Origin: a virus
Reading direction: 5' to 3' (one strand)
Virus record (IMG/VR): IMGVR_UViG_3300029791_000191
DNA length: 64,000 nt
Shown one piece after another: positions 5,252-54,056 of this stretch. The notes below the pieces were generated by a model. The model saw nothing but the letters and a program-made list of their open reading frames with translations. It had not been told where the DNA came from and did not search any database. How positions within the stretch are numbered: position 1 is the stretch's first letter; each line of letters starts with the position of its first letter. A program made the position numbers and the translations under genes.

Positions 5252-5324
5252 GAGGGTAGTGGCCAAGCGGTAAGGCACAGCACTTTGACTGCTGCATTCA
5301 TGGGTTCGAATCCCATCTACCCCG
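5252..5324 (+). tRNA. tRNA-Gln (anticodon UUG)
   Basis: Hand-folded cloverleaf: anticodon stem CAGCA/TGCTG with loop CTTTGAC, T arm ATGGG-TTCGAAT-CCCAT, 7-bp acceptor with a 1:72 mismatch; 5' boundary +/-1 nt. Confidence 0.65.
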
Positions 5325-5745
5325 TAGTTCTAAGTTAGCTCTGAAGGCCAAAGAGGTAACCGATAGAACTAAGGTATACCTACTTATGTTCATGGCGAAC
5401 ATAGATAAAACTTAAGTGAAAATTTGGATGGTTTAATAACTGGAACCTGTTCAAAAAAGGGAACACAGTACATTGGTAGCAATGGTTTGAATGTACAAAA
5501 CATTTATATAGATGTGCTTTGTGCTAATGAGGTTGTAAGTGGGAAGTTGGAGGATGATCTGGTTAAGCAGATGTGTAGATTAGTTATGAAGCAAAAAAGT
5601 AATTGAGTCAGTGAGGTAGAAATAATGTGGGAGGGCTTTTGAGAGTGATGACGATCGTTCGTGTAACTGACACGATTGCATAAAAGTTTTTTACAGATAT
5701 TGTTACATTTCTATATTGTGGGTGTAATTATAACGCCCACTACAT

Positions 5746-5819
5746 GGAAACTTAGCTCAGTTGGTTAGAGCAACCGGCTCATAACCGGTCGGTCCTGGGT
5801 TCGAGTCCCAGAGTTTCCA
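5746..5819 (+). tRNA. tRNA-Met (anticodon CAU; could be initiator, elongator or Ile-lysidine type)
   Basis: Perfect acceptor GGAAACT/AGTTTCC, D arm GCTC-AGTTGGTTAG-AGC, anticodon stem ACCGG/CCGGT with loop CTCATAA, T arm CTGGG-TTCGAGT-CCCAG. Confidence 0.75.
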
Positions 5820-6042
5820 TTTCTCCTGACGAAGGAGTGACTTTTGAGAGCTCTAATTTTCAATAGTAAAGAGCCGTTGCTGATTTGGTAGTGAGAATCA
5901 GATGGCGCTGGAAAGACAGATAGTTTTTGAGATGTTTTGTAATGAGACAAACATTCAGCTTTAGAGAAAATGTAGGGAATTGAGCTGATCAAAGAACACA
6001 TAATCCTGTTGTGACTGCAGCATGACAGGTCATGCATGAAAA

Positions 6043-6117
6043 GTGATAAGTAGCTCAGTTGGGAGAAAGAGCGCACTACAAAAGTGAGGTCGGTGGTTCG
6101 AGTCCACTCTTATCACA
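6043..6117 (+). tRNA. tRNA-like gene with aberrant D and anticodon arms (possible degenerate or unusual tRNA; anticodon not assignable by eye)
   Basis: 8-bp acceptor complementarity GTGATAAG/CTTATCAC, D stem GCTC..GAGC with 12-nt loop, canonical T arm GGTGG-TTCGAGT-CCACT and variable AGGTC as in tRNA-Ile/Ala. Only 13 nt remain for the anticodon arm, where 17 are expected. Confidence 0.4.
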
Positions 6118-6158
6118 GGCAATTAAATTAAAGTTTAAAATTCAGGAGGTATTTATCA

Positions 6159-6796
6159 TGACAACAGAAAAAATGAATGTACACAAAGCATTAGCGGAAC
6201 TGAAGATCTTAGATGATCGTATTGTAAAAGCAATTAACAGTGTAGAAGCTTGTATTTCAAATAAGCATTCTAACACAAAAGTCAAAGGTGTAGATATCAA
6301 AGTTTACACAGGGGTTATGAAATCTTCTTATGATAAAGCAACTGATTTAATCAAGAGAAGAGAAGCTATTAAAAGAGCTGTAGTTCTTTCAAATGCAGTA
6401 ACTAAAGTCACTGTTGCTGATAAAGAGTATACAGTAGCTGAAGCTATTGAAATGAAAAATCATGGAATGGACTTCAAGAAACTTTTAAAACAGAAAATCA
6501 AAAAACAGTATGATGCTGCTATGGCTCAGATCATAACTGAGAATGGTAAATTGGAAGATAAAGCTGAAAATTATGTTGTAGGGCTCTATGGTAGCAAAGA
6601 AGGTAAAACCTCTACTGAAGAGTTTACAAAAACTAGAGAAGCTTATATAGAAGCTCAGACAATGGAACTTGTTGATCCAATTGGTGTTCTTAAAGAAATG
6701 GAGGATTTAGAAACAGAAATTGCAGAATTTACTGCTGAAGTAGATGCGGCACTTTCAGTAAGTAATTCTCTGACAGAAATAGAAATTACATACTAA
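6159..6796 (+). CDS. hypothetical protein (about 212 aa from the ATG at 6159)
   Basis: RBS AGGAGG 7 nt before ATG 6159; the track ORF begins upstream and overlaps the tRNA-like gene, so the later start is preferred. Confidence 0.45.
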
Positions 6797-7238
6797 GATA
6801 TATTCACTGCTTATCGAAAACTTTAAACTATAATCTATATGTCTTTTTAGCTGGGTTAGACATATATAAAACAATAAAGAAACCACAGCATTACTTATAC
6901 AGTAGATAATAGTATAAAATACAAAATGGATTAGGATTACGTGGTCGTATAGGACCTGTAAGCTTAATATATTATATTATTGGATGAGGCAGATAGCCAT
7001 AGTACTGTAAAGTTCAAAGATTAAAACTCAAATCTTAAAATTCAAAATTCAAAGTTTATCCCAGTTTAAAGATTAAAGAATAAAGCATAAAGAATAAAGA
7101 TTTATCAAATCCTTGGTAAAAGTTTATGAGCATGATTATACTTGGCTCTTAGTTTGTACAAGGCTGGTAAGTAGTGAATAAGTAAATATAATAGTCGCTT
7201 TCATTATTAACAATTGGCAGTTGAACTGCCAGTTGTAC
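6797..7238. repeat. 440-bp AT-rich noncoding region with short direct repeats (AAAGAATAAAG, TTAAAATTCAAAATTCAAAG)
   Basis: No ORF; iterated A-rich motifs between a CDS and tRNA-Leu. Confidence 0.4.
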
Positions 7239-7320
7239 CCACCCATGGTGGAATTGGCAGACACGTTAGATTTAGGTTCTAATGCTTAATAGCGTGAGAG
7301 TTCGAGTCTCTCTGGGTGGA
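7239..7320 (+). tRNA. tRNA-Leu (anticodon UAG), type II with long variable arm
   Basis: Acceptor CCACCCA/TGGGTGG, anticodon stem TTAGA/TCTAA with loop TTTAGGT, variable arm TGCTTAATAGCG, T arm GAGAG-TTCGAGT-CTCTC. Confidence 0.7.
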
Positions 7321-7344
7321 TTAATAAATAGAAAGGAGTAAAAA

Positions 7345-7944
7345 ATGTTTCAAGTAGGAGATATAGTACAAGTAATAATAGTGCCTAAAAAATATAAACA
7401 ATATGATATTGCAGGTGCTACAGGCGTTGTAAAAACAGTTTATTCTAACAATATAAGAATACATATCTCTAGTTATTACAATGAAGAATCAGAAGAAGGA
7501 GATTTTTATTTTAAAGAAAATGAGCTAAATAATTTTACAAGAAAGGAAAATGATATGTCAATTATAGAACTTTGGGAGAAAAGAAGTATTGAAAAGATTG
7601 ATAAGGAAGCTGAAATTAAATTAATGGAATTGCTTGCAGAAGATGAATATACTCATGATTTAATTTTACACATGAATGATCTAAAAGATGCCGGGTTTAA
7701 AGTTGAAATACCAAATAATATTTATGATATGACTTCTGATTATACCAGAGGAATGAGAACTATTACTTTAAGTTCAGCAGAAGAGAAAAAAGTTGAAATT
7801 AAAAAAGTAGCAGAAGAAGTTGGTGTCTTATTAGAGATGTGTAAAGGAGACGTTGTTAAAGAAATGGAGATTCTTTGTAGCTATAGAGTTGTAGAGTACC
7901 CATTCGGGAGAATGACTGTTGGAGGTAATGCTTGTGGGAAATAA
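7345..7944 (+). CDS. hypothetical protein (199 aa)
   Basis: RBS AAAGGAG upstream; no motif recognised. Confidence 0.45.
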   Translation: MFQVGDIVQVIIVPKKYKQYDIAGATGVVKTVYSNNIRIHISSYYNEESEEGDFYFKENELNNFTRKENDMSIIELWEKRSIEKIDKEAEIKLMELLAEDEYTHDLILHMNDLKDAGFKVEIPNNIYDMTSDYTRGMRTITLSSAEEKKVEIKKVAEEVGVLLEMCKGDVVKEMEILCSYRVVEYPFGRMTVGGNACGK

Positions 7945-8494
7945 AAAGAAAGTTCTGATTGTAGTTGATGTGCAGAATGATTTTGTAACTGGCTCACTAG
8001 GTACGCCGGAAGCTCAAGCTATTGTACCTAAAATTAAAGAAAAGTTTGAAGAATATAAAAATAATGGGGATTATGTAGTGTATACAATGGATACACATAA
8101 TTCAGATTATTTGAATACTTCTGAGGGTAAAAAACTTCCTGTTGAACATTGTATATATCGAACTTCAGGGTGGGAGGTTATAGATGAAATTCATCCTGTA
8201 AAAAATAATTATAACAATTTTATGGTATGTAAAAAGTCAACTTTTGGTTATGAAGGCTGGGATTGGGAAGAAATATTTGGGACAGACAGTGATATAGACA
8301 ATTTAAACATTGAAATCATAGGTGTGTGTACAGACATCTGCGTTATCACAAATGCTCTTCTTATCAAAACTTATTATCCGGAGGCAGAGATCACAGTAGA
8401 TGCGTCATGTTGCGCTGGAACTACACCGGAGAAGCATAAAGCAGCTTTAGAGGTGATGAAAAGTTGTCAGATTAATGTGATAGGAGAGAAATAA
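7934..8494 (+). CDS. pncA: isochorismatase-family hydrolase, nicotinamidase (PncA)-like
   Basis: VLIVVDVQNDF N-terminal signature and catalytic-cysteine context GVCTDICV. Start ambiguous: GTG 7934 after GGAGGT, or TTG 7919. Confidence 0.65.
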   Translation: MGNKKKVLIVVDVQNDFVTGSLGTPEAQAIVPKIKEKFEEYKNNGDYVVYTMDTHNSDYLNTSEGKKLPVEHCIYRTSGWEVIDEIHPVKNNYNNFMVCKKSTFGYEGWDWEEIFGTDSDIDNLNIEIIGVCTDICVITNALLIKTYYPEAEITVDASCCAGTTPEKHKAALEVMKSCQINVIGEK

Positions 8495-8495
8495 G

Positions 8496-8957
8496 ATGGT
8501 AGGAGAAAATACTGTGGAAATGAAGAAATTAGAAGAAATTACATTAGAGGATATTCAGAACTACTTACGTAAATATGACTGTGATGGAGTGATCACTACA
8601 AAACTTGTTGAAAAAAACAATACAGAAACCTTACAAGTATTTGAGTTTGATGGGCTTTATGACGATACTATTTGGGTGTGCTCAATTTATAAAAATGAGG
8701 ATAATGATTTTTATATAAAAACAGCTGACGCAACCTCACCGTTTAATCATGCAGATGGCGTTGAATACGATGATAAAGAAAATGAACTGTTTAAGATTAG
8801 TACAATTGTCGCAGGATTATTAAGCGAAGCGAAAACTTCATTATGTGAATCTATTGATTACTTTCAAAGACAGGTGGATTTTATTAATAATTTCTGCAAT
8901 GGTAATCATTTGAATAATCCGTCTGTAATAACTACCTGTGATATTGAGCATAAGTAA
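8496..8957 (+). CDS. hypothetical protein (153 aa)
   Basis: ORF only. Confidence 0.4.
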   Translation: MVGENTVEMKKLEEITLEDIQNYLRKYDCDGVITTKLVEKNNTETLQVFEFDGLYDDTIWVCSIYKNEDNDFYIKTADATSPFNHADGVEYDDKENELFKISTIVAGLLSEAKTSLCESIDYFQRQVDFINNFCNGNHLNNPSVITTCDIEHK

Positions 8958-9010
8958 AAGTTAAGTAAGGATTATTAAACAGTAAGAAATAAATTATAAG
9001 GAGATTTGGA

Positions 9011-9814
9011 ATGATTAAATTAAACGGTGTAGAAATCAAACTTGATAAATATCCGGATGGGACATTCTTATTTAAGAATATCCCACCCATCGGAGGATGG
9101 TGTAGAGATAATATTGAATGGTTCTTTGAATCAATGGAAGAATTAACAGCAGTTGAATATATTACTAGATATTGTTGGGATCATAGAGTAGTGCCTAATT
9201 TATATATGCCTTATATCCCAGATGCACGTATGGATCGAGTCAAGCATGAGAACGAATTATTTACTTTAAAATATTTTGCTCAGACTATTAATTCATTACA
9301 TTTTGGAAAAGTAGAAGTTTTAGATCCGCATTCTGATGTATCTGCCGCATTATTTAATAAAGTACATGTAGAATCCCCGAATCGAATGATTGAGGATGCT
9401 GTTAAGAAGATTGCGAGTAATAACCTTATGATGTTTTATCCGGATGCGGGATCCATGAAGCGATATTCTTCAGCAGTACATCTTCCATATGCTTTCGGTA
9501 TTAAGAATAGAGATTGGGAGACTGGAGAAATTAAAGGTTTAGATTTATCAGGTGAAATTAATCAACTGCCAGGTAAAGATATCCTTATTGTAGATGATAT
9601 CTGCAGCAGAGGTGGTACTTTTTATTATAGTGCTAAGAAACTAAAAGAAACAGGAGTAAATAAGATTTATCTTTATATAACTCATTGTGAGAATACTATT
9701 TATGAAGGAGAACTTCTGAAAAACAATGGACTGATTGAGAAGATTTATACGACAGATACGATTCTAACAAATCTGGAAAGTCCTAAGATTGAACTGGTTG
9801 AAAGGTTTAGATAA
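9011..9814 (+). CDS. Prs-family (ribose-phosphate pyrophosphokinase fold) phosphoribosyl-pyrophosphate enzyme; Prs or Adps-like
   Basis: Matches Prs motifs: MPYIPDARMDR (PYxxYARQDR), VEVLDPHS, FYPDAGSMKRY, PRPP loop ILIVDDICSRGGT; 267 aa. Confidence 0.65.
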   Translation: MIKLNGVEIKLDKYPDGTFLFKNIPPIGGWCRDNIEWFFESMEELTAVEYITRYCWDHRVVPNLYMPYIPDARMDRVKHENELFTLKYFAQTINSLHFGKVEVLDPHSDVSAALFNKVHVESPNRMIEDAVKKIASNNLMMFYPDAGSMKRYSSAVHLPYAFGIKNRDWETGEIKGLDLSGEINQLPGKDILIVDDICSRGGTFYYSAKKLKETGVNKIYLYITHCENTIYEGELLKNNGLIEKIYTTDTILTNLESPKIELVERFR

Positions 9815-10203
9815 TGAATATTGCATATAAAATATTTATATTATTTACAATGATTTTCTGCCACATTGTAGATGATTATTATTTACAAGGATGGTTGGCA
9901 TCTGCAAAACAAAAATCATGGTGGGAAAAGAATGCACCAGGAAAATTATATAAATATGATTATTTAGCAGCGTTGTTTATGCATAGCTTTAGTTGGTCAT
10001 TTATGATTATGTTACCACCAACAATTGCGCTTATGATTATTGGCGGTAAATGGAATCCTTTATTATTGGTTATGAATTTATTGATACATATGTTAGTAGA
10101 TGATATGAAAGCCAATAAAAAGAAAATTAATTTAATTCAAGATCAGATAACTCATATGTTTCAGATTGCTTTTACTTGGGGCTGTTTGATAGGAAAGTTA
10201 TAA
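9814..10203 (+). CDS. small integral membrane protein (129 aa)
   Basis: Several hydrophobic helices; translationally coupled (TAATG) to the upstream gene. Confidence 0.4.
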   Translation: MNIAYKIFILFTMIFCHIVDDYYLQGWLASAKQKSWWEKNAPGKLYKYDYLAALFMHSFSWSFMIMLPPTIALMIIGGKWNPLLLVMNLLIHMLVDDMKANKKKINLIQDQITHMFQIAFTWGCLIGKL

Positions 10204-10216
10204 GGGAGATAAAAAT

Positions 10217-10585
10217 ATGAAACCGATTATTAGTCCTTGGTTGATTTATTCTGCTAGTAGAGCAGATAATTTAACAACATTTTTTGGAATGATCGCAGGA
10301 ATATGCGGAGTTATTGCTATGTGTGCTTTATTTGCTGGATTAACCGGATATAACGAACCATTTAAGTTTAGAAAAACTATTAGCAAATTAATTATCGGAT
10401 GTGTTGTAATGACTATCATTACAATCATGACACCTAATACAGAAACAATATATACGATGGCAGTTGTAAATGAAATCACACCAGATAATATTCAAACAAT
10501 TGGCAAAACTGGTAAAGATGTAGTTGATTATATCACAGATCAGATTGATAAAATTGTAAATGACAAAGAGGAGGATAAAAAATAA
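10217..10585 (+). CDS. small integral membrane protein (122 aa)
   Basis: Hydrophobic segments; RBS GGGAGAT upstream. Confidence 0.4.
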   Translation: MKPIISPWLIYSASRADNLTTFFGMIAGICGVIAMCALFAGLTGYNEPFKFRKTISKLIIGCVVMTIITIMTPNTETIYTMAVVNEITPDNIQTIGKTGKDVVDYITDQIDKIVNDKEEDKK

Positions 10586-12060
10586 TGGATACCTTAGCAA
10601 TTCTGTTAAGCGATACTTACAAACAAGTACACCACAATATGTTTCCGAGAGGATTGACGAAGTTAGTCTCTTATTGGACTCCGAGAAGATCAATGTTAAA
10701 GGAGCAGGATCATATGGTTTTCTTCGGACTGCAGGCTTTTATTAAAGAATATCTTATTACATATTTTAAAAGAGATTTCTTTAAATTAAGCACTGATGAA
10801 GTTCAAGAACTTTATACAATTAGTATGGACATTCAGTTAGGAGAAGGAAATTACGATATTTCTCCAATCCTTAAACTTCACGAATTAGGGTATCTTCCGA
10901 TTCAGATCCGTGCATTACCGGAAGGTACATTAGTGCCTATGGGAGTGCCATGCATTGAAATCACGAATACACATCCAGATTTTGCATGGGTTGTGCAGTG
11001 GATTGAGTGTATTCTGCAGGTTGAGCTTTGGAAGCCGTGTGCTCATGCAACAATTGGACATATGTACAGAGAACTGGCAAATTTCTACTATAAAAAGACC
11101 TGCGACGACATTTTAAGACCTGAAATGGCCTGCTCAGACTTTGGAATGCGTGGAATGTCCTGTATGGAAGAAGCAGAGAGATGCTCCGTTGCTTGGCTAT
11201 TATCCTTTGATAAGACAAGTACGATCCCGGCAATTGATTATTTGGACAAATATTATTTCAATGACTGTAGCGTGAGTCATATTGGAATTGGTGCGATTTC
11301 TACCGAACATGCGGTCATGGCTTCAAATTATGCTGTGGACGGAGACGAAATTACATTTGTGAAAAGACTACTTACAGAATTATATCCGAATGCATCTTTC
11401 AGCATGGTATCTGATACATATGATTACTGGAACATGATTGACAATATTCTTCCAGCTTGCAAAAAAGAAATTATGCAGCACAATGGTAAGCTCTTGGTTC
11501 GTCCGGATTCTGGTGATATGGTAGAGATTTCAGTTAAGACTATCGAAAAACTCTGGAATACATTTGAAGGATCAGTAAATAGCAAAGGTTACAAAGTACT
11601 GGACCCTCATATTGGAATTATCTATGGTGATGGCTGTACTCTTAACAATGTAAAAAAGGTATGGGAAGAACTTGAGAAGAAAGGATTCGCTGCAAACAAC
11701 ATTGTATTTGGAGTTGGGGCTTTTTGTTTCTCGGCAGTTGTAGAACCTGATGGACGTATGGTCGTTGTAACCAGAGATATGTTCGGCATTGCTATGAAAG
11801 CTACATTTGGAGAAGTTAACGGACAACCGATTATGATTTACAAAGATCCAAAGACAGATGTAAGCCATTTAAAGAAATCTCATAAAGGATGTTGTCATGT
11901 ATATTACGATGAAAATGGAGAATTAAGGTGCAGAGATGGATATGACAGCTTTGTTTATGATGGGGCATTAAAAACTGTATTTAAAGACGGTGAAATATAT
12001 CATACAGAAATATTTAAAGAAATCAGAGACAGATTAAACGGAAGAAACAAAGATGAGTAA
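10585..12060 (+). CDS. NAMPT-family phosphoribosyltransferase (NadV / Namat-like)
   Basis: 491 aa; N-terminal LAILLSDTYKQVHHNMFP resembles the NAMPT signature LLATDSYKVTHYKQYP; size and position next to the Prs-like gene. Confidence 0.6.
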   Translation: MDTLAILLSDTYKQVHHNMFPRGLTKLVSYWTPRRSMLKEQDHMVFFGLQAFIKEYLITYFKRDFFKLSTDEVQELYTISMDIQLGEGNYDISPILKLHELGYLPIQIRALPEGTLVPMGVPCIEITNTHPDFAWVVQWIECILQVELWKPCAHATIGHMYRELANFYYKKTCDDILRPEMACSDFGMRGMSCMEEAERCSVAWLLSFDKTSTIPAIDYLDKYYFNDCSVSHIGIGAISTEHAVMASNYAVDGDEITFVKRLLTELYPNASFSMVSDTYDYWNMIDNILPACKKEIMQHNGKLLVRPDSGDMVEISVKTIEKLWNTFEGSVNSKGYKVLDPHIGIIYGDGCTLNNVKKVWEELEKKGFAANNIVFGVGAFCFSAVVEPDGRMVVVTRDMFGIAMKATFGEVNGQPIMIYKDPKTDVSHLKKSHKGCCHVYYDENGELRCRDGYDSFVYDGALKTVFKDGEIYHTEIFKEIRDRLNGRNKDE

Positions 12061-12526
12061 AATTACAGATTATTTATTAAAAGATGATGTGATTGTAGTA
12101 ATGGATGTAGATGGAGTACTTGCTCCGTATGAGTTTTCTGAATTAAGTCATAGTATGACTGACGATGAATGGGACAGACTTGTAGCTTCCGGTGAGAATC
12201 CGTATAAAGATGTGCGTCCGATTAAATTAATGCAAGAGTTTATTCAGAAGAAAGGCGTGGATAAAGTATATACATGTTCAAAGAGTCCTCTAAGTGAAAT
12301 CCCTGGCAAAAAAGCTTTTATCAAAGACAATTACAATCTTCCAGATGATAATATCTATTTCACTTTAGAAAAAACAGAAAAACTTACTGTGCTTCAGACG
12401 TTACAGCAAAAGCTTGGGCTTAAGCCATCTCAGATTGCAATTGTAGAGGATACAGTAAAAACTTTGGATTATATTCGTGCACATAGTGATTTTGTAACCG
12501 TACATGTTTCATCATTTATGGAGTAG
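12053..12526 (+). CDS. HAD-superfamily hydrolase (5'-nucleotidase-like)
   Basis: Motif I VMDVDGVLA (DxDG) near the N-terminus; 157 aa. Confidence 0.45.
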   Translation: MSKITDYLLKDDVIVVMDVDGVLAPYEFSELSHSMTDDEWDRLVASGENPYKDVRPIKLMQEFIQKKGVDKVYTCSKSPLSEIPGKKAFIKDNYNLPDDNIYFTLEKTEKLTVLQTLQQKLGLKPSQIAIVEDTVKTLDYIRAHSDFVTVHVSSFME

Positions 12527-12543
12527 ATATGGAGGTATAAAAA

Positions 12544-12951
12544 ATGAGTAGAACATATTTTACTGATTCCGTTTCAGATCTTTGTCAGGGGATTATTGAT
12601 AAAATAGATACTTATGAAAAACGAATTAAATACCTAGAAAAAGAAAACAAGAAGCTCAAAGATGAGCATTATAAAGATTCTGAAATGCAGAGAATGGAAG
12701 TAGAACTGAAAAAAGCGAAAGAGGATCTGTATAGAGGATTTCCAATTTCAGAAAAAGAACAAGAGAAAATCAGAGAGTGGGAATTAAAACATGATGCTGA
12801 GAAACATGGTCTGAAAACTTCTAAACAGAGAGCAATGGGGCATGGTTGCATAGGCGGCTCTCTTACATGGTGCTTTACACCAACATCAATCGGAACTATT
12901 GGAGAAGTGATTTGCTCCTGTGGCGAGAAGTTTACATTTCAGGATTTATAG
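12544..12951 (+). CDS. hypothetical coiled-coil protein with C-terminal Cys cluster (135 aa)
   Basis: ORF with RBS; CxxC-like spacing at the C-terminus. Confidence 0.4.
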   Translation: MSRTYFTDSVSDLCQGIIDKIDTYEKRIKYLEKENKKLKDEHYKDSEMQRMEVELKKAKEDLYRGFPISEKEQEKIREWELKHDAEKHGLKTSKQRAMGHGCIGGSLTWCFTPTSIGTIGEVICSCGEKFTFQDL

Positions 12952-12961
12952 GAAAAGATTT

Positions 12962-13462
12962 ATGATTAAAATTATTGAAGGTAACATTGTAGATGCACAG
13001 ACCGATTATATAATTCATCAAGTTAATTGCCAAGGAGAAATGAATACTGGAGTCGCTAAAGCATTAAGAGATTATGACGAAGGTATTTATATACATTATA
13101 GAAACGTCTGTAAATTACGTGAGTTTAATCCAGAATTACTTCTTGGAACATATGACGAGTACTTTATCAGAAGGAAAAATCAAGAGATATTGTCCTTATT
13201 TGCACAAGACAAGTATGGATATGATGGAAAACAGTATACTGATGTTAAAGCTTTTCGAGAAGGATTAAATTTTATTCGACAACAAATACCTGTTTATTGG
13301 TTTGATGCTGATAACAGACCTCACAAGACAACCATTGCACTCCCATATAAAATAGGCTGCGGAAGAGGAGGAGCAGACTGGGAAGTGGTTTATAAGATTA
13401 TAGAAGAAGAATTAAGTAGTTTTGAAGTAGAACTGTGGAAATTGGAGGAGCAGAATGTTTAA
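12962..13462 (+). CDS. macro domain protein (ADP-ribose binding or hydrolysing)
   Basis: IIHQVNCQGEMNTGVAKAL matches the macro domain N-terminal glycine-rich motif; about 167 aa. Confidence 0.6.
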   Translation: MIKIIEGNIVDAQTDYIIHQVNCQGEMNTGVAKALRDYDEGIYIHYRNVCKLREFNPELLLGTYDEYFIRRKNQEILSLFAQDKYGYDGKQYTDVKAFREGLNFIRQQIPVYWFDADNRPHKTTIALPYKIGCGRGGADWEVVYKIIEEELSSFEVELWKLEEQNV

Positions 13463-14600
13463 TGTAGAAAAAGCAACAAATGATTGTATTCAGTGGATTA
13501 GAGATTGGAGAGAAGAGAATGGTCCTGGATGTAATCTCATAGTAGGTATTTCCGGTGGCGTTGACTCTTTAGTAGCTGCTGAGCTATGTGTGGAAGCCGT
13601 TGGAGCTGACAAAGTTCTCGGAGTAATCATGCCGAACTATAAACAGGATGATATTGATGTGGCTTATGATATTTGCCAGCATGTATTAAACATTGATTAT
13701 CTTACTATTAATATTGGATCAGCTTATGATGATATTATTGATCAAATTGATGCTGCATTTAATGTAACAGATCAGACATTAATTAATCTCGCTCCTAGAC
13801 TAAGAATGACCACTCTATACGGGGTGTCACAGTCACACAATGGAAGAGTGGTTAATACATGTAACCTCAGTGAGGATTACATTGGATATGCCACTAGATA
13901 TGGAGACGCAGCTGGAGATTTTGCTCCATTGGCACAGTTTACAAAGGGAGAGGTAAAAAGAATCGGGCATTATTTAGGATTGCCTAAAAATTATGTAGAG
14001 AAGACCCCGTCGGATGGTTTATGTGGTAAATCAGACGAAGATAACTTTGGATTCACCTATGCAGTATTAGATAAATACATCCGTACAGGAGTGTGTGACG
14101 ATCCAGAAGTAAAAAGACGGATTGATCGTTTACATGAGAAGAATGAGTTTAAACTGAAACCAATGCAGTATTTTAATTATAAAGAGGAGAAAACAGATAT
14201 GAATATGTCACCAGATGAGATTTTAAAAGCATTTGAAAAAGCAGTAGCGAAAAAAGAAAAAGAGCATACTATTGGAGAAGAGCTTAGAAGCTGTGAGCGC
14301 CAGATTAAAGATGCTTTAGGCATTGATGTATATATTGTACCTAAAAATAAAACTGATAAACAGGTTTGTAAAACACTTTCGAAAGATGATATCACATTTG
14401 TAGGAAGAACAAAAGATATTGCTACAGGAAAAATTAGAACTACTGTAGGATTTAAAGATGGTACACAGACTTCTGTAGTCTTAAATGATTGGGAAGATGA
14501 AGATGATACTGAAAAAGCCATTATGTGGTGTTTGCTTAAGAAGTGTTTCAAATCAAAAAGAAGCTTAGAAAAAGTAATTTATTCAATGGAGGACATGTAA
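13455..14600 (+). CDS. nadE: NH3-dependent NAD+ synthetase (NadE) with about 110-aa C-terminal extension of unknown function
   Basis: PP-loop LIVGISGGVDSLVAA, then NadE-like core; extra C-terminal domain. Confidence 0.7.
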   Translation: MFNVEKATNDCIQWIRDWREENGPGCNLIVGISGGVDSLVAAELCVEAVGADKVLGVIMPNYKQDDIDVAYDICQHVLNIDYLTINIGSAYDDIIDQIDAAFNVTDQTLINLAPRLRMTTLYGVSQSHNGRVVNTCNLSEDYIGYATRYGDAAGDFAPLAQFTKGEVKRIGHYLGLPKNYVEKTPSDGLCGKSDEDNFGFTYAVLDKYIRTGVCDDPEVKRRIDRLHEKNEFKLKPMQYFNYKEEKTDMNMSPDEILKAFEKAVAKKEKEHTIGEELRSCERQIKDALGIDVYIVPKNKTDKQVCKTLSKDDITFVGRTKDIATGKIRTTVGFKDGTQTSVVLNDWEDEDDTEKAIMWCLLKKCFKSKRSLEKVIYSMEDM

Positions 14601-14601
14601 T

Positions 14602-14790
14602 ATGAGATCAAAGAATTCCTGGAACAAAGAGTATGAGACAAAAGTAGATAAAAACGGAAAGAAACATACTAGAATGGTTAAACATGGGATGAAGCAGTCT
14701 AAGAAATCACTTGCTTTTTCTAAACATGTAAATAAAATGAAAACTGATAAACCTAAGTGGAATAAGAAATCTAGTGGCGAGAGCCACTAG
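14602..14790 (+). CDS. small lysine-rich basic protein (62 aa)
   Basis: ORF; highly basic composition. Confidence 0.35.
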   Translation: MRSKNSWNKEYETKVDKNGKKHTRMVKHGMKQSKKSLAFSKHVNKMKTDKPKWNKKSSGESH

Positions 14791-14802
14791 AAAGGAGGGC
14801 TC

Positions 14803-15198
14803 ATGAAAATACGGAAAGGATTTGTTACTAATTCAAGCTCTAGCAGTTTCATTATTTGCTTTGCAAGGATTGCTGACAAAGAAAAAGCTCAGAAGATAAT
14901 TGATCAGTTCAATCTTGATGTATTAGATGTTACTGGTGTAAATGATGAAAGAAACTGGTCTGGTGAGCTTGGTGCTAGTTGGTGCGGAGCGGTCATTTAT
15001 GGGGTTGATGACATTTTAGAAAAGCACCCTGATGGAGAATATATCGTAATTGAGGACAGGAACGATGCTTATTATGATGAATGGGGTGATGCTGTATATG
15101 ATTATGATTTCTCTATGAATGAAGCAATAGATGCTATTACGGAAGTAAATGGATTTGCTGATATAGAAGTTGCTGAAGGAGAAGGGAGAGATGGTTAA
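14803..15198 (+). CDS. hypothetical acidic protein, paralog A (N-terminus MKIRKGFVTNSSSSSFII)
   Basis: RBS AAGGAGGG; shares a conserved N-terminal 18-aa motif with the next gene. Confidence 0.5.
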   Translation: MKIRKGFVTNSSSSSFIICFARIADKEKAQKIIDQFNLDVLDVTGVNDERNWSGELGASWCGAVIYGVDDILEKHPDGEYIVIEDRNDAYYDEWGDAVYDYDFSMNEAIDAITEVNGFADIEVAEGEGRDG

Positions 15199-15581
15199 TG
15201 AAAATAAGAAGAGGATTTGTTACTAATAGTTCGTCTTCAAGTTATATCATTGCAAAAAAGAAAGATGCAACATTAGCAGACATTAAAAATTCACTGTTGA
15301 AAGTAAGAGACAACGCTAAATCTTTTTTGATTGAACAGCATAAATGGATTGATCTTGAGCCGGATGTAGAAGAGTCAATAAGAAAAGAAGATTATGATAA
15401 GGCTGTGGATGCGTTTTTAGAACACACAGCAGATTATTTATACGGTAACTTTAATGATGGAACATTAGGTGATTGGGAAGTTGGATCAGATGAATTCTGG
15501 AGTGAAAACGGGGATCCATATGAAAATTTTATTTTAGATTCTGCATGGCTTATTGGTGATGAAAACTTACAGATTATCTGA
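15198..15581 (+). CDS. hypothetical acidic protein, paralog B (N-terminus MKIRRGFVTNSSSSSYII)
   Basis: Tandem paralog of 14803-15198; TAATG overlap coupling. Confidence 0.5.
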   Translation: MKIRRGFVTNSSSSSYIIAKKKDATLADIKNSLLKVRDNAKSFLIEQHKWIDLEPDVEESIRKEDYDKAVDAFLEHTADYLYGNFNDGTLGDWEVGSDEFWSENGDPYENFILDSAWLIGDENLQII

Positions 15582-15590: not shown

Positions 15591-16109
15591 ATGAAAATAA
15601 AAGCAAAGCAAATAATTGTAGATGGGAGCACATCTTATAAATATTATAAACCTAAATTCTGTTGCAAAGCATTGGAAGAGAATCCTAGGATAGTTATTTC
15701 TAATGAATATCCTGATAACTACTTATGTAGAACTTGTGAAACTATAGAATGCCATGGTTGTGACTATAAAACTGATGAAACTTTTGGAATTTTCTTTTAC
15801 ATAAGCGAAGAAGTCCAAGACTGGGAAGATACATGGCCTGAAGACTATTATTACCCTCTTAAATTCTGTCCATTTTGCGGAGAACCAATTGAAGTTGATG
15901 TCATAGAAACCATTGATAAAACAGAAGAAGCAGAAAAGGTATCTGAGGTTGCAACGAAGCTACGAAAACAGTTATGGACATGTGATAGCAAGAAAAAGTG
16001 TGCAGAGTTAGAAAAAGAGATAAGGAACTTAGACGATATAGTAAATTATTATTATTCAACAGGAGAAATTGATGAAAATAGAGAAAATCAAAAAATTGTT
16101 GAAAAGTGA
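15591..16109 (+). CDS. Cys-rich zinc-ribbon protein (172 aa)
   Basis: CxxC and CPFCG motifs: CRTCETIECHGC and CPFCGEP. Confidence 0.45.
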   Translation: MKIKAKQIIVDGSTSYKYYKPKFCCKALEENPRIVISNEYPDNYLCRTCETIECHGCDYKTDETFGIFFYISEEVQDWEDTWPEDYYYPLKFCPFCGEPIEVDVIETIDKTEEAEKVSEVATKLRKQLWTCDSKKKCAELEKEIRNLDDIVNYYYSTGEIDENRENQKIVEK

Positions 16110-17103
16110 ACACTATGATTTCTTAAGAGCGAACGAGCACCTGGGGAGTAACATAATTCTATTAGGCTTAGGTGGGTCTCATGCTTATGGTACAGATACA
16201 GAAAACTCCGATCTGGATATTAGGGGTTGTGCTTTAAATAAAAGAGAAGAAATCCTGATTCCTACACATAATTTTGATCAGGTAACGGAAGAAACAACAG
16301 ATACAACAATCTATTCTTTTAATAAATTGATAACTCTATTGTCAAACTGCAACCCAAACACAATTGAGCTGATAGGATTGAAGCCAGAACATTATCTTTA
16401 TATTCATCCAATTGGTCAAGAACTTCTTGATAATGCTGAAATGTTTTTATCTAAGAAAGCGATCTATTCTTTTGGAGGCTATGCTACAAGCCAGCTAAGA
16501 AGGCTCGATAATAAATCTGCCAGGAAATTGGGACAAGAAGAAAGAATGCAGCATGTTCTTAATAGTATTATGAATGCTTTTTATACTTTCCCTGAAAAGT
16601 ATTTCAATTTTCCAGAAGATGCAATAAAGCTTTATGTAGATAAAGGTATTCAGGAAGATTATGAAACAGAAGTATTTATGGATATCCAGTTGAAGCATTA
16701 CCCTTTGAATGATTATCAGGGGATGTGGGCCGAAATGAAAAACATTGTTAGGGATTATTCCAAAATTGGGAAGAGAAATAAGCATGCCATAGAACATAAT
16801 AAGTTAGGAAAGCATATGTGCCATTTAGTGAGATTGTATCTTATGTGTTTTGATATTCTTGAAAAAGGCAAAATTATTACATATAGAGAAGATGATCATG
16901 AGCTTCTTATGGCTCTACGTAATGGAGAATATTTGGATGCAAACAGTCAGCCTATCCCAGAATTTTTTGAAATGGTAAACGAGTTAGAGAAAAGACTTGA
17001 GTATGATTCAAAGAATACCTCATTGCCTGATAAACCAAATTATAAAGCTATAGAAGAATTTGTAATGTCTGTCAATGAAAGAATTGTATTAGGAGAGATT
17101 TAA
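16069..17103 (+). CDS. Pol-beta superfamily nucleotidyltransferase
   Basis: GLGGSHAYGTDTENSDLDIRG = GS..G..(n)DxD NTase active-site signature; 344 aa. Confidence 0.55.
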   Translation: MMKIEKIKKLLKSEHYDFLRANEHLGSNIILLGLGGSHAYGTDTENSDLDIRGCALNKREEILIPTHNFDQVTEETTDTTIYSFNKLITLLSNCNPNTIELIGLKPEHYLYIHPIGQELLDNAEMFLSKKAIYSFGGYATSQLRRLDNKSARKLGQEERMQHVLNSIMNAFYTFPEKYFNFPEDAIKLYVDKGIQEDYETEVFMDIQLKHYPLNDYQGMWAEMKNIVRDYSKIGKRNKHAIEHNKLGKHMCHLVRLYLMCFDILEKGKIITYREDDHELLMALRNGEYLDANSQPIPEFFEMVNELEKRLEYDSKNTSLPDKPNYKAIEEFVMSVNERIVLGEI

Positions 17104-49874: not shown

Positions 49875-50554
49875 CTATGAAATTTGAAAGAACACATGTA
49901 TATAACTTTGAAGAAGCACTTTATGGAATGAGACTGCCGTTAATGTCTCATAGTAAGAGTGATAGTACTAATTGTATTGATAAAGAATGCGATCATTGTC
50001 CTTTTGTATACGAAGATTATAACTGTGATATGATGGATTATATTATTGGCCCAAACGATATGGATTTATGTCAGAGACTTATCAGTGCCGGACCAGAGCA
50101 TAGAAAATTTTTAAGACAGATTTCTGTAGCTGTTACTATTACAGCACCGCTTTATTGGTGGAAAGAGTACGATACATACAAAGTAGGAACAGTAGCTAAT
50201 AGTTCCAGTACAATGCACAAACTTGCTAGTACATCTATTACTTTGGAATGTTTTGAAACAGACGATTTCGATTCAGAGATTGAAGACCCAACAACTATTA
50301 TTAATCAGTGTGAGCATTATAGACAGAAATATCTTGAGACTAAAGACAAACGCTATTGGAAAGCTTTAGTACGTTGGTTGCCTAATGGATGGCTTCAGAC
50401 AAGAACTCTCAGTTTGAATTATGAGAATCTTCGTTCTATGTATTTTCAGAGGAAGTCTCATAAATTAACTGAATGGCATCAGTTTTGTGACTGGATTTTA
50501 ACTCTTCCTTATGCTAAGGAGTTAATTACTTATACAAAGGAGACTAAAGAATGA
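49862..50554 (+). CDS. hypothetical protein, possibly divergent ThyX-like
   Basis: Region FLRQISVAVTIT..SSSTMHKLAS loosely resembles the ThyX core but lacks the RHR motif. Confidence 0.3.
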   Translation: MEGLTMKFERTHVYNFEEALYGMRLPLMSHSKSDSTNCIDKECDHCPFVYEDYNCDMMDYIIGPNDMDLCQRLISAGPEHRKFLRQISVAVTITAPLYWWKEYDTYKVGTVANSSSTMHKLASTSITLECFETDDFDSEIEDPTTIINQCEHYRQKYLETKDKRYWKALVRWLPNGWLQTRTLSLNYENLRSMYFQRKSHKLTEWHQFCDWILTLPYAKELITYTKETKE

Positions 50555-51084
50555 TAGTACTTGTAGGAGAATCAGCATCAGGTAAAAGTTCTATTGAAAG
50601 AGAGCTTATTGCTTTAGGTTTTAATAAAATAGTTACATATACTACTAGACCTATGAGAAAAGAAGATGTAGATGGAGAAACATATCATTTTATTACAGAA
50701 GAGCAATTTAATGATATGATAGAAAAAGATCTTTTTGCTGAACATGCTTCTTACAATGGTTGGCAATATGGAACAGCCAAAGAAGACTGTACAGATGATA
50801 AAGTAGTTGTCTTGACTCCTCATGGGCTCAGACAATTAAGGAAGAACAAAGATTTGCATATTATATCTTTCTATATTGATGTTCCTCGAAGGGATAGATT
50901 AATTAAAATTCTGGAACGTGGTGATGATATAGAAGAGTCTTATAGAAGGAATTTATCTGATGTGGGTCAATTTGATGGTATTAAGGATGAAGTAGATTAT
51001 GTAATTTCAAATAAAGGCTATTCATGGAGTCCTTTAAATATGGCTCATATAATCAAAAGGAGTATGGAATGGATGAAATGTTAA
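50551..51084 (+). CDS. guanylate-kinase-fold (d)NMP kinase
   Basis: P-loop GESASGKSS, TTRPMRKEDVDGETYHF (Gmk-like TTR..R..E..G..Y.F). Confidence 0.6.
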   Translation: MIVLVGESASGKSSIERELIALGFNKIVTYTTRPMRKEDVDGETYHFITEEQFNDMIEKDLFAEHASYNGWQYGTAKEDCTDDKVVVLTPHGLRQLRKNKDLHIISFYIDVPRRDRLIKILERGDDIEESYRRNLSDVGQFDGIKDEVDYVISNKGYSWSPLNMAHIIKRSMEWMKC

Positions 51085-51254: not shown

Positions 51255-51298
51255 AAAATGGGAGCTATATCGAAATGATATAACTCCCTTATTTTTAA
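51253..51298. terminator. bidirectional intrinsic terminator between xis (+) and int (-)
   Basis: Hairpin GGGAGCTATATC-GAAAT-GATATAACTCCC flanked by AAAAAA and TTATTTTT. Confidence 0.6.
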
Positions 51299-52557
51299 TC
51301 AAGTAAATTTATGACTTCTGATTTATGTTTATTCATGATATGCATATATATGTTATAAGTTGTGGAAACATCTTCATGTCCAAGTATCTCTGATATTACT
51401 TTGATATCTACAGGTTGGTTCTGTTCCCATCCTTTCTGCAGCAGCATAGATCCGAACGAATGCCTAAGATCATGCAGGCCGAAGCCATTAGATTCGATGC
51501 CAGCTCTCTTGAGGATCGCTTTAAGCGTCCTGGTAAGAGTTGACTGTGATGGTGGAATATTATTTTCAGTTACGAATATGTGATCATCTCCGGATGCTTT
51601 TAAGCCAGGAGAGACAGTTTTAAGCCAGAGCAGCTGTTCCTTTGCACGATTTGCCAGAGGAATGACTCTGATTGACTTAGGACGCTTTGGTGTATCTATG
51701 AGCCACTGATATTTGCCATCTACTTTGATACGCTCCATTGTCTTATCTATGTTAATGGTATTATTCTTAAAATCTATATCTTTCCATGTGAGAGCATAAG
51801 CTTCTCCTATACGCATGCCAGTATAAAGAACTAACAGACAGAACCTGGCATTACGTCCATAGATGTAATCACCTGTCCTTACGCCTGGCAAAGCAGAATC
51901 TGCTTTCATAAGAGCCGTATTATAAAACTTCTCAGCTTCTTCTAAAGATAAGAAAGAGTGTTCTTTCTTCTGTACTGCATATTTTGACTTATGCGGCATC
52001 TTAATCCCTTTTGCAGGATTCTCTGTGATGATGTTACAGGATACAAGATAGTCGAAAACAATATTGAAAAGAGTGCGTGTCTTTTTAACAGTACTCTCAG
52101 AATATTTCTTCGACATATTTGTATAGTATGTTTGAATGACAATCTTGTCTATAGCAGCCATCTGGACATCAGCAATCGGATTAGTTTTAATATAGCAGCG
52201 ATTTGTAGACTGAAGAGTAGCATAGTTATTTGTCTTGAAAGTCGGCTCCAACGTCTGCAGGATATTATCTATACATTCCCCAAGAGTCATCTTACGATAA
52301 TCTTTTTGGTTAACCCTCATACTCTTAGCTTCAAATTCTTGTATCTTGCGTTTTACATCAGCTTTTGTCCTTCCTACAAATTCTTTCCGGCTTGTCATAC
52401 CATCATATTTCTTACGGTACCTATAGTATGTAATGTCATTCTTTGTTACAGTATCCCATGATCCTGAACCTTTTTCCCTTCTTGCCATATACATCCCTCC
52501 GTTGTGCAAATTTACACTAATTTTACTTACAAAATAAAAAACTTTACTTTTTCCCAA
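51295..52557 (-). CDS. int: tyrosine-type site-specific integrase
   Basis: C-terminal catalytic region HDLRHSFGSMLLQKG...Y, N-terminal SAM-like domain; 420 aa. Confidence 0.85.
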   Translation of the reverse strand: MGKSKVFYFVSKISVNLHNGGMYMARREKGSGSWDTVTKNDITYYRYRKKYDGMTSRKEFVGRTKADVKRKIQEFEAKSMRVNQKDYRKMTLGECIDNILQTLEPTFKTNNYATLQSTNRCYIKTNPIADVQMAAIDKIVIQTYYTNMSKKYSESTVKKTRTLFNIVFDYLVSCNIITENPAKGIKMPHKSKYAVQKKEHSFLSLEEAEKFYNTALMKADSALPGVRTGDYIYGRNARFCLLVLYTGMRIGEAYALTWKDIDFKNNTINIDKTMERIKVDGKYQWLIDTPKRPKSIRVIPLANRAKEQLLWLKTVSPGLKASGDDHIFVTENNIPPSQSTLTRTLKAILKRAGIESNGFGLHDLRHSFGSMLLQKGWEQNQPVDIKVISEILGHEDVSTTYNIYMHIMNKHKSEVINLLD

Positions 52558-52622
52558 AATTATGATAATATGAATTATGTGTTAAGTAAATTATAGCATA
52601 CGGATAAGGATGAAGCAATAAT

Positions 52623-52678
52623 TATTTCCCCCTTATCAATGCGGGAAATGAAATATTCCCCCTTATTTCCCCCTTATG
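52623..52678. repeat. three direct TTCCCCCTTAT repeats plus inverted ATTTCCC/GGGAAAT; putative integrase arm-type binding sites
   Basis: Direct repeats at 52625, 52655, 52667, between int and the host junction. Confidence 0.45.
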
Positions 52679-52830
52679 AATTAAATTTAATAGGGTGAAA
52701 AGGGTATAAACTAACACGACTAGGTATCAAGTTTGATAACTGAATATCTCTTATAAAGTGGCTTTAAAGCCAGTAAAATCAATGCTTTTCAGTATTTACA
52801 AAGGTTTCAAAAGATTGATTTTCAAGATAC

Positions 52831-52902
52831 GCGCCTGTAGCTCAGTGGATAGAGCAGTGGTTTCCGGTACCATGTGCGGGGGTTCGATTCCCTTCAGGCG
52901 TG
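52831..52902 (+). tRNA. tRNA-Arg (anticodon CCG)
   Basis: Acceptor GCGCCTG/CAGGCGT (G1-U72), D arm GCTC-AGTGGATA-GAGC, anticodon stem GTGGT/ACCAT with loop TTCCGGT, T arm with TTCGATT loop. Confidence 0.65.
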
Positions 52903-53025
52903 CTGCCTGGGACGTATGTACAGTTCCGGTGCGTTGTATCACAGGAGTTATCAGAATCGGGAACTGTCAGAAATCGTATGCGGCAGTGAACGGAGCAAAC
53001 GGTAACTCATAAGGAGGACAAGAAC

Positions 53026-53931
53026 TTGGATGATTTTAGAGAATGGTTATCAGATAATCTCCGGTATTTTATGCTGGGTGGAGCTATTCTGATAATTGTG
53101 GTTGTCCTGTTTTGCGGCATTCGAGCCTGTTCCGGAAGTAATAAGGGGAATTCCGGAGATGAACAGAAAACCACATCCGAAGACCAGGGAAATGTTCCTT
53201 CTTCTCCGATAAGTGAAGGGGAGTCTGACGAGAAGAAAGAAGACGCCAATCCCATGGAAACAGCAGATGCAGATGTTACTGCATTGATCACGAGCTATTA
53301 TCAGGCTCTGGGGGAAAAAGATATTGCAACGCTGAAGACTCTGGAAGATGATTTTACACCGTCTGACGAGTCAAAAGTCACAAATTTGAAAGATTATATC
53401 GAAGGGTATGAAGTAGGCGATGTGTACACGAAGAAAGGTATGACAGATGATTCTTACGTGGTTTACGCCTGTTTCTCGTATATCTGTCAGGGCGTTGAGA
53501 CCAAGGCCCCTGCACTGACTCAGTTCTATGTATATAAGAACAGCGAAGGGAACTGGGTGATCAATAACGGAGCTTTACAGGATTCTGAGATTTCCGCATA
53601 TATGGAAAAACAGTTATCAGACAGTGATGTTTCAGCTCTTATAAAGAAGGTGCAGAATGAACTGGATCAGGCACAGCAATCTGATCCGTCTCTTGAAGAA
53701 TTCCTGAATGGTCTTGGGGAGGAAGCAGGTGTGTCAACAGAGGCAGAAGATGGCACGATGCTTACTGCTTCGGAGGAATGTAATGTACGCGCAGAAGCCA
53801 GCACAGATGCTGATATCCTTGGCGTGATCTCAGCAGGTGATCAGGTTCAGAAGACAGGTACTGATGGTGAATGGGTTCAGATCGACTACGACGGTCAGAC
53901 CGGATACATCAGAGGAGATTTACTTGAATAA
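53026..53931 (+). CDS. membrane-anchored protein with acidic linker and C-terminal bacterial SH3 domain
   Basis: N-terminal TM helix, low-complexity acidic region, C-terminal SH3b-like CNVRAEASTDADILGVISAGDQV...GEWVQIDYDGQTGYI. Confidence 0.55.
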   Translation: MDDFREWLSDNLRYFMLGGAILIIVVVLFCGIRACSGSNKGNSGDEQKTTSEDQGNVPSSPISEGESDEKKEDANPMETADADVTALITSYYQALGEKDIATLKTLEDDFTPSDESKVTNLKDYIEGYEVGDVYTKKGMTDDSYVVYACFSYICQGVETKAPALTQFYVYKNSEGNWVINNGALQDSEISAYMEKQLSDSDVSALIKKVQNELDQAQQSDPSLEEFLNGLGEEAGVSTEAEDGTMLTASEECNVRAEASTDADILGVISAGDQVQKTGTDGEWVQIDYDGQTGYIRGDLLE

Positions 53932-53940
53932 AATTGAATA

Positions 53941-54000
53941 TGGAACGTAAAAAATACAGGCGGTTATCCTTGTGGTAACTGCCTGTATTTTTTACGTTCC
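53941..54000. terminator. bidirectional terminator: 20-bp perfect inverted repeat GGAACGTAAAAAATACAGGC...GCCTGTATTTTTTACGTTCC
   Basis: Between convergent genes; A/T tracts inside the stem arms. Confidence 0.65.
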
Positions 54001-54056
54001 GTTTTTCTGACATTGTTCTTGTCAGCTTCTGCCGGAGATTTTGCTGTTCTTATTAC

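Follow-up and report, generated by a model that had tools for sequence, protein, structure and literature searches.

The IMG/VR virus record IMGVR_UViG_3300029791_000191 was analysed as a single stretch of 64,000 nucleotides (nt), here called the window. Ten open reading frames (ORFs), all on the + strand, fill positions 7919-14600 and are referred to as the NAD block (Table 1). They encode a nicotinamidase, a Prs-fold enzyme, a transferase of the NAMPT fold, a HAD-fold phosphatase, a macro-domain protein and an NadE with an additional C-terminal domain, and we discuss below whether these proteins may form a nicotinate-using variant of the phage NAD+-restoring pathway NARP1. The same six domains had been assigned in an earlier, sequence-only reading of this DNA, and all six were verified by profile or structure matches. 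The six genes are not strictly consecutive, as had been stated there, but are interspersed with four further ORFs (g2, g4 with DUF3307, g5 and g8); the products of the two small genes between the Prs-like and the NAMPT-like gene are indeed hydrophobic.

Table 1. Features of the NAD block, with positions in the window and the matches behind each assignment.
Feature	Position	Strand	Basis
g1, nicotinamidase (PncA-like)	7934..8494	+	PF00857 (isochorismatase family), 5e-24
g2	8496..8957	+	153 amino acids; closest relatives only
g3, Adps-like Prs-fold enzyme	9011..9814	+	phrog_619, 1e-67
g4, small membrane protein, DUF3307	9814..10203	+	PF11750, 2.4e-5; phrog_2470, 7e-14
g5, small membrane protein	10217..10585	+	phrog_3878, 3.6e-13
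g6, Namat-like transferase, remodelled base pocket	10585..12060	+	PF04095 + PF18127 (NAMPT family)
g7, HAD-fold phosphatase	12053..12526	+	predicted structure; invariant DxDGV and ED motifs
g8, coiled coil and Cys-rich C-terminus	12544..12951	+	135 amino acids; sub-threshold coiled-coil Pfam matches only
g9, macro-domain protein	12962..13462	+	phrog_335 'phosphatase', 7e-37; DarG macro NF048014, 4e-13
g10 N-terminal domain, NH3-dependent NadE	13455..14174	+	PF02540, 6e-49; TIGR00552, 167.8 bits (cut-off 63.65)
g10 C-terminal orphan domain, 141 residues, fused to NadE	14175..14600	+	homology search

The block opens with the nicotinamidase gene, for which alternative starts are located at 7919 (TTG) and 7928 (ATG), and closes with nadE. 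The best relative of the nicotinamidase in PDB was the P. horikoshii pyrazinamidase/nicotinamidase 1ilw (1.8e-16), with which the catalytic Asp/Lys/Cys and the Zn ligands Asp/His/His all align; these six active-site and metal residues are invariant in 144 non-redundant homologues from the loci defined below as non-Asp. Against the NCBIfam equivalog model of the E. coli-type nicotinamidase the protein scored 27.9 bits and did not reach the cut-off of 174. It is predicted to convert nicotinamide to nicotinate. NadE carries the SGGxDS motif as GISGGVDS, is devoid of a glutaminase domain, and is predicted to form NAD+ from nicotinate adenine dinucleotide (NaAD), ATP and NH3.

For the two central enzymes, the sequence-only reading had considered sequence alone insufficient to tell Prs from Adps or NadV from Namat. 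This view is outdated, as two structure papers from 2026 give criteria (PMC13586617, PMC12774641). When the Prs-fold protein was compared with Prs and Adps, it fell on the Adps side. It scored 89.7 bits against the Prs model TIGR01251, below the cut-off of 113, and 247 bits against a hidden Markov model (HMM) of Adps, which was built solely from the Prs-like genes of canonical NARP1 loci and gave 124 bits for E. coli Prs. With ICP1 Adps, which has been characterised biochemically, the protein shares about 40% identity over 61% of its length and two deletions, one of the N-terminal helix and one of the C-terminal alpha11-alpha12; with 267 amino acids compared to 315 in E. coli Prs, it ends before alpha11-alpha12. 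Its PP loop DDICSRGGTF represents the majority Adps pattern, whereas Prs has DDMIDTGGTL (ribose 5-phosphate-phosphate loop DD[MI]xDTGGT). Because the Prs cut-off was failed, and because of the Adps HMM score, the shared deletions and the PP loop, we assign the protein to the Adps clade and not to cellular Prs. The residues R87, H121, D161, K185, D212 and D213 of ICP1 Adps are all present and are invariant in 153 Adps-like proteins of non-Asp loci; as these catalytic residues are identical in Adps and Prs they were rejected as a discriminator, and the two are told apart by PP loop, indels and HMM scores. The predicted reaction is the conversion of ADP-ribose (ADPR) and ATP to ADPR pyrophosphate (ADPR-PP) and AMP. 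The gene is located 771 nt upstream of the Namat-like gene.

The corresponding comparison of the NAMPT-family protein with NadV and Namat came out on the Namat side. The best PDB matches were 9w5x and 9w5w (372 bits), which agree in sequence and motif with the SPbetaL1 Namat of PMC12774641, compared to 311 bits for the phage structure 9ke8, 188 bits for human Nampt and 150 bits for the Nampt-family structure 7yqo. These scores place the protein closest to the Namat of phages and apart from Nampt. The Namat core is kept (F189, R192, R306, the catalytic His and the TRD motif). In the base pocket, S212 (nt 11218-11220, codon verified) aligns with D215 of SPbetaL1 Namat, which hydrogen-bonds nicotinamide and whose exchange in D215A cuts NAD+ formation about 8-fold (PMC12774641). 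S184 (nt 11134-11136) and S239 (nt 11299-11301) correspond to H187 and A242, respectively. A242 is listed among the nicotinamide-pocket residues of SPbetaL1 Namat (PMC12774641); H187 is located two residues before the stacking Phe189 and is not among the published nicotinamide contacts. In human enzymes, the position of D215 is occupied by D219 in NAMPT and by S214 in nicotinate phosphoribosyltransferase (PMC4442680), and NAMPT D219S is listed as switching substrate affinity (PMC4919578). The adenine clamp, GSFTYQYNTRD in SPbetaL1, is present as GAFCFSA, a 10-residue insertion (nt 11734-11763) and VVTRD (codons verified); compared with the motif GSxPhixPhixPhiTRD, the aromatic residue at position 3 is kept and position 7 is not aromatic. 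The clamp loop, whose third position is Arg, Lys or Tyr (R40 in SPbetaL1), is variable across the family (PMC12774641). The transferase is predicted to join nicotinate to ADPR-PP, with NaAD and pyrophosphate as products.

To place these pocket residues in the family, we gathered 286 related loci; these came from viral contigs, from phage records and from genomes sampled once per species. Three alignment columns in the active-site region switch together between canonical (n = 92) and non-Asp (n = 188) sequences. At the position of SPbetaL1 H187, all canonical sequences have His (92/92) and non-Asp sequences have Ala, Ser or Gly; D215 is Asp or Glu in canonical sequences and Ser or Ala in 188/188 non-Asp sequences; and at A242 the canonical sequences have Ala (92/92) and the non-Asp sequences Ser (188/188). 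Gene context was counted by HMM detection in the 216 loci flanked on each side by at least 3 kb (146 non-Asp, 70 Asp/Glu). Neither PncA nor NadE was found in the canonical Asp/Glu loci (0/70 for each), all of which had Adps. Among the 101 loci with Ser and the clamp insertion, PncA was found in 98, NadE in 99 and Adps in 100; for Ala with the insertion (32 loci) the numbers were 31, 29 and 32, and for Ala without it (12 loci) 11, 6 and 12, while all three genes were present in the single locus with Ser and no insertion. Both PncA and NadE thus occurred in 130 of the 146 non-Asp loci, and at least one of them in every one (146/146). The pattern was similar for representatives with less than 70% identity, where PncA and NadE accompanied 22 of 25 non-Asp genes and none of 34 canonical ones. 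In a neighbour-joining tree, the non-Asp forms fell into one or two deep groups beside canonical Namat. In one compact operon (L050), the genes for PncA, Adps, Namat and NadE overlap end to end, and the gut phage Phass-1 (code-15 clade, OQ749652; L288 3480-7918) has the order nicotinamidase-Prs-Nampt-HAD-like-NadE, its Nampt having Ala at the Asp position and a canonical clamp.

The sequence-only reading had regarded PncA and NadE as an added Preiss-Handler branch. Since the Namat-like enzyme has lost the amide-binding Asp, and since this loss tracks PncA and NadE across the family, the two enzymes are most likely obligatory steps of one linear pathway that would run through NaAD. No ORF of the window contains an NMNAT/NadD motif (H/T)xGH, as that reading had already noted, and the motif was matched in just one non-Asp locus, L209. 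ORFs with NMNAT-type motifs (GSFNPVHNAH, GSFDPLHVGH) lie near Namat in L130 (11565-12629) and L209 (9453-10565), one of them an Asp-type and the other a Ser-type locus. A separate observation concerns a canonical sub-group with Glu at the amide-binding position (G[ST]E[ST]), in which the Adps gene is found downstream (+1.5 to +2.6 kb) and not upstream of Namat (L135, L137, L144, L146, L149, L151-L153, L156, L157, L159, L167, L171, L173-L175, L180, L183, L200, L201 and L203).

The macro-domain gene, which has an alternative GTG start at 12920, bears on the substrate of the pathway. Its product, a macro domain of the DarG/TARG1-like kind, matched the macro domains 5m31 and 5m3i in PDB and also (3e-17) a 'phosphatase' of Vibrio phage 184E37-2 whose gene lies between those for Adps and Namat. 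The layout Adps-phosphatase-Namat is that of NARP1-AP, with the phosphatase Adpp (10.64898/2026.01.28.702374). The macro protein is predicted to convert ADPR-1''-phosphate to ADPR, and an Adpp-type macro gene was present in 78 of the 101 Ser-type loci. A second line of evidence comes from bacterial chromosomes. On Clostridium chromosomes, the operon has the order adps-pncA-namat(Ala)-nadE-nrtR and is located among housekeeping genes, as in Clostridium sartagoforme (L287 8631-13114). NrtR homologues adjoin 37 non-Asp loci, namely L287 and 36 further genome loci; for Asp-type loci there were two weak matches (27-30 bits). NrtR is released from DNA most effectively by ADP-ribose, and the C. acetobutylicum operon has the order nrtR-pncA-pncB-nadD-nadE (PMC2330246); in the adps-containing operons, adps and namat stand in the slot of pncB and nadD of this type of NrtR operon. 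In the Ala-type enzymes of Clostridium, the adenine clamp is complete as published (GSYTYQYNTRD plus the loop Arg). Because of the Adps-clade partner throughout, the macro gene, the linkage to NrtR and the intact clamp of the Ala-type enzymes, ADPR and not phosphoribosyl pyrophosphate (PRPP) is likely to be the input.

Taken together, we propose, with a probability of about 60%, that the NAD block is a phage-borne, deamidated variant of NARP1 that proceeds via nicotinate and NaAD. A host NADase defence would split NAD+ into ADPR and nicotinamide. Any ADPR-1''-phosphate would be returned to ADPR by the macro protein, and the Adps-like enzyme would activate ADPR with ATP to ADPR-PP, while the nicotinamidase would turn nicotinamide into nicotinate. 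The Namat-like enzyme, having lost the amide-binding Asp, would then join nicotinate and ADPR-PP directly to NaAD, and NadE would amidate NaAD to NAD+. Adps and the altered Namat would in this way take the place of PncB and NadD in a Preiss-Handler operon. We infer these activities, the switch to nicotinate, the ribosyl donor and the role against defence from the observed protein families, active-site residues, pocket switches and gene co-occurrence. That an Adps/Namat-type reconstitution set was to be preferred over Prs plus NadV, as the sequence-only reading had suggested, is in line with the scores of both enzymes, the lack of NMNAT and the macro gene, which fits NARP1-AP.

At somewhat better than even odds, the proposal extends to the family: a large clade sister to Namat, to which about half of the non-redundant sequences in our sample belong, would catalyse nicotinate ADP-ribosyl transfer. 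The pathway of PncA, Adps, the altered Namat and NadE, which would run under ADPR/NrtR control on Clostridia chromosomes, would have been taken up by large gut phages, where macro and HAD phosphatases would have been added to it against NAD+-depleting immunity.

Several points weigh against this proposal. The base specificity of the transferase is deduced from three pocket residues and the gene context. Its adenine clamp is partly kept, with F392 retained, R40 replaced by Met37 and Y396 by Val beside the 10-residue insertion; because of this altered clamp, the use of ADPR-PP is the weakest link of the route and less certain here than for the Ala-type Clostridium enzymes. Moreover, Namat keeps PRPP activity in vitro (PMC12774641), so that some nicotinate mononucleotide (NaMN) might be formed as well. 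The co-occurrence with PncA and NadE reflects few independent events followed by long retention and not hundreds of trials, because the non-Asp forms fall into one or two deep groups. What carries the argument is therefore that the association has been retained across a deep divergence (42-100% identity to the Namat-like protein of the block), and not the p-value. The role against defence is extrapolated from canonical NARP1, and the chromosomal, NrtR-linked versions show that the pathway can serve ordinary NAD recycling too. Finally, the proposal gives no reason for a phage to prefer a route that is longer and costs more ATP. Salvage in Clostridia may run via nicotinate, with nicotinate as the standing base pool and free nicotinamide being quickly deamidated, and the ATP-driven NadE step might also make the route irreversible.

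The main rival is a PRPP-based Preiss-Handler module, in which the Prs-fold protein would be a true PRPP synthetase, the NAMPT-family enzyme would make NaMN, the host NadD would convert it to NaAD, and the phage NadE would finish the synthesis. The changes in the base pocket point to nicotinate and are silent on the ribosyl donor, the clamp has lost R40 and Y396 and gained an insertion, Namat enzymes keep PRPP activity, and the host NadD is always available. Nevertheless, the Prs-fold protein belongs to the Adps clade, fails the Prs cut-off and has a PP loop without the DT pair of Prs. A homologue of the macro ADPR-1''-phosphate phosphatase, as found in most Ser-type loci, is sensible only if ADPR is the input, and the chromosomal versions are linked to a repressor that responds to ADPR. 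In addition, Ala-type members with a complete adenine clamp have the same PncA and NadE partners, and the loci supply NadE and almost never NadD. We therefore regard this rival as unlikely.

Lower still in probability is a canonical NARP1-AP accompanied by an independent Preiss-Handler booster, in which the Namat-like enzyme would join nicotinamide to ADPR-PP while PncA and NadE would feed the host PncB/NadD route in parallel. The Adps-like, Namat-like and macro genes do occur in the known NARP1-AP combination, and the Namat core residues are conserved. The amide-binding Asp, however, is absent from the enzyme and from every relative that carries PncA and NadE, none of the 70 Asp/Glu loci has either gene, and the D215A exchange cripples NAD+ synthesis from nicotinamide in SPbetaL1 Namat. 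A nicotinamidase made by the phage would, moreover, remove the very nicotinamide that a Namat of the same operon would need if it used this base.

We consider it improbable, slightly more so than the booster, that the genes are a general auxiliary metabolic module raising or recycling NAD+ for phage replication or for the lysogen, and not for counter-defence. The same four genes are found on Clostridium chromosomes under NrtR and flanked by housekeeping genes, and the element is a temperate prophage. This explanation concerns the selective benefit and not the chemistry, and is compatible with the nicotinate route proposed here. Canonical NARP1 and NARP1-AP, however, were shown to counter the SIR2, DSR2, Nezha and aRES defences. 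In the phage copies, moreover, NrtR has been lost and a macro phosphatase has been added, for which no use other than against aRES-type cleavage is described. An identity of the transferase as cellular NadV/Nampt, or of the module as NARP2 or NARP3, was rejected, as NMNAT, NadR and PnuC are missing and the enzyme is much closer to Namat.

Among the remaining genes of the block, the HAD-fold phosphatase gene overlaps the stop codon of the Namat-like gene by 8 nt (12053-12060). Sequence-only matches of the protein were sub-threshold, and a profile of its family found nothing among PDB sequences; the assignment to HAD is therefore based on the predicted structure (predicted local distance difference test, pLDDT, 92.5), for which Foldseek returned the small-cap HAD phosphatases MDP-1 (2wm8) and AphA (1z5g) with an E-value of 4.5e-5 and a TM score of about 0.55. 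In 6 of 47 loci the Namat-like and HAD genes are fused in frame through two different frame-restoring indels at the 8-nt overlap (one in L012, L013, L018, L020 and L027, the other in L023), and a 648-amino-acid Namat-HAD fusion protein is present in BFVD. These fusions argue for a joint function of the two proteins; as guesses, the phosphatase might act on pyrophosphate or on a phosphorylated ADPR derivative. Homology to the HAD-like ORF (DFDDT) at the same operon position in phage Phass-1 was considered and rejected, since no similarity was detectable, which indicates independent recruitment.

The C-terminal domain of NadE was seen only fused to NadE and only in relatives with at least 72% identity. 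The sequence-only reading had called it unusual and possibly a sign of a variant pathway; it is an orphan domain limited to close relatives and not a general feature of the pathway. Its AlphaFold model was of poor quality (pLDDT 62.7), and no structure was matched by Foldseek at E <= 0.001. The last 70 residues of the protein (14391-14600) are almost invariant, while the preceding 70 residues differ by 20-25% among relatives, which suggests a strong constraint on the end of the protein. Of the small ORFs, g5 is kept between the Adps-like and Namat-like genes in most relatives with at least 70% identity, and g8 is co-conserved in relatives of the same range. The DUF3307 gene is found in a minority of relatives, and of the first 64 related loci only about a dozen carry g2. 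No Pfam or PHROG match was found for g2, and lowering the Pfam thresholds yielded no usable match for g2, g5, g8 or the C-terminus of NadE. A scan of positions 6800-15300 found promoter-like sites at or below the expectation from shuffled sequence and no convincing + strand terminator, and did not set the limits of an operon.

The window is AT-rich (GC content about 0.33), with coding on the + strand up to about 51 kb. A tyrosine integrase gene follows at 51295-52557 (- strand) and then a tRNA-Arg(CCG) at 52831-52903. Past these, genes of a Gram-positive host were found, encoding a PdaB/PgdA-type deacetylase with choline-binding repeats, RluF, the NAD-dependent ligase LigA and MetA, and across the junction the GC content rises from 0.33 to 0.40-0.46 (window 51295-64000). 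Since integrase, tRNA-Arg, host genes and the GC shift bound the + strand region, the NAD block sits within the right part of a large temperate Clostridia prophage. Close relatives were found as IMG/VR contigs of 100-180 kb, most of which seem to come from gut metagenomes, and genes of the block were also found in genome assemblies of Lachnospiraceae and other Clostridia. The block is kept in more than 100 related viral contigs and is therefore not a chance juxtaposition. A DNA similarity search against phage records gave one short match only, which was uninformative. In the surroundings of the block, four tRNA genes are located just upstream (5253-7320): Gln(TTG), Met(CAT), a Cys tRNA with the unusual anticodon ACA, and Leu(TAG). 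Directly 3' of nadE lie two tandem paralogous ORFs (14803-15198 and 15198-15581), both starting with MKIR[KR]GFVTNSSSSS, and further downstream an ORF of 344 amino acids (16069-17103) that has the look of a nucleotidyltransferase by eye only and is without an NMNAT motif. A guanylate-kinase-like gene (50551-51084) adjoins the integrase gene.

If the proposed route is true, direct synthesis of NaAD from ADPR-PP and nicotinate would be a new reaction of NAD metabolism, and the block would represent a fourth architecture among phage NAD+-restoring pathways. PncA and NadE beside a 'Prs/NadV' pair would then be a readable annotation signature, and positions 187, 215 and 242 would provide a simple rule separating nicotinamide-using from nicotinate-using enzymes. 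The chromosomal copies linked to NrtR suggest that bacteria themselves recycle ADPR into NAD+ by this route. The route is frequent in phages and prophages whose hosts are Clostridia of the human gut and rumen, and these are hardly represented among cultured phages. NadE was present in only 37 of 50,697 phage records; anti-defence surveys based on cultured phages would therefore miss the route, and this low frequency may be why such surveys missed the variant.

NARP1, NARP1-AP, an extension by a RyR domain, NARP2 and NARP3 have already been published. Full-text searches of the available paper library, joining NAD+-restoring pathways with nicotinamidase, NadE, NaAD or nicotinic acid, gave no description of the variant, and the nicotinate route is apparently undescribed. 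With NARP2 (Nampt plus a bifunctional NMNAT/Nudix protein) and NARP3 (PnuC-like plus NadR-like; PMC13464706) the block shares the encoding of NAD+ restoration by a phage; unlike in these pathways, no NMNAT, NadR or PnuC homologue is found in the window. The resemblance to the Preiss-Handler pathway lies in PncA as the first and NadE as the last enzyme, in the predicted intermediate NaAD and in the NrtR carried by the chromosomal relatives. In contrast to that pathway, the window has no NadD motif, Adps and the altered Namat stand in the place of PncB and NadD, the phage copy is without NrtR, and the ribose-phosphate-adenylate part is predicted to come from ADPR and not from PRPP and ATP. As to PncB, the Namat-like gene (NAMPT/Namat branch) is the sole gene of type II phosphoribosyltransferase fold found in the block, whose ten ORFs were the part of the window scanned for PncB.

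Closer likenesses are found within the NARP1 group. As in NARP1-AP (10.64898/2026.01.28.702374), a macro protein of the same family is encoded together with the Adps/Namat pair. Here, however, its gene is located downstream of Namat, after two other genes, and is combined with PncA, NadE and a HAD phosphatase; the published search criterion for NARP1-AP is a position within two genes, whereas the macro gene is the third gene downstream. With NARP1 itself (Osterman et al., 2024, 10.1101/2024.02.11.579819; PMC13586617, PMC12774641) the block has in common an Adps-clade gene near a Namat-clade gene, the catalytic-core residues of both enzymes, the independence of NMNAT and the likely input ADPR. 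It differs in that the nicotinamide-binding Asp is Ser and that A242 and H187 are switched as well, in the interruption of the clamp motif GSxPhixPhixPhiTRD by 10 residues, in nicotinamidase and NadE as probably obligatory partners, and in the predicted product of the transferase, which would be NaAD and not NAD+. The module would work in the manner of NARP1, yet it departs from two sequence features that define this pathway, the Asp and the clamp motif, in a way that predicts a different substrate and a different product.

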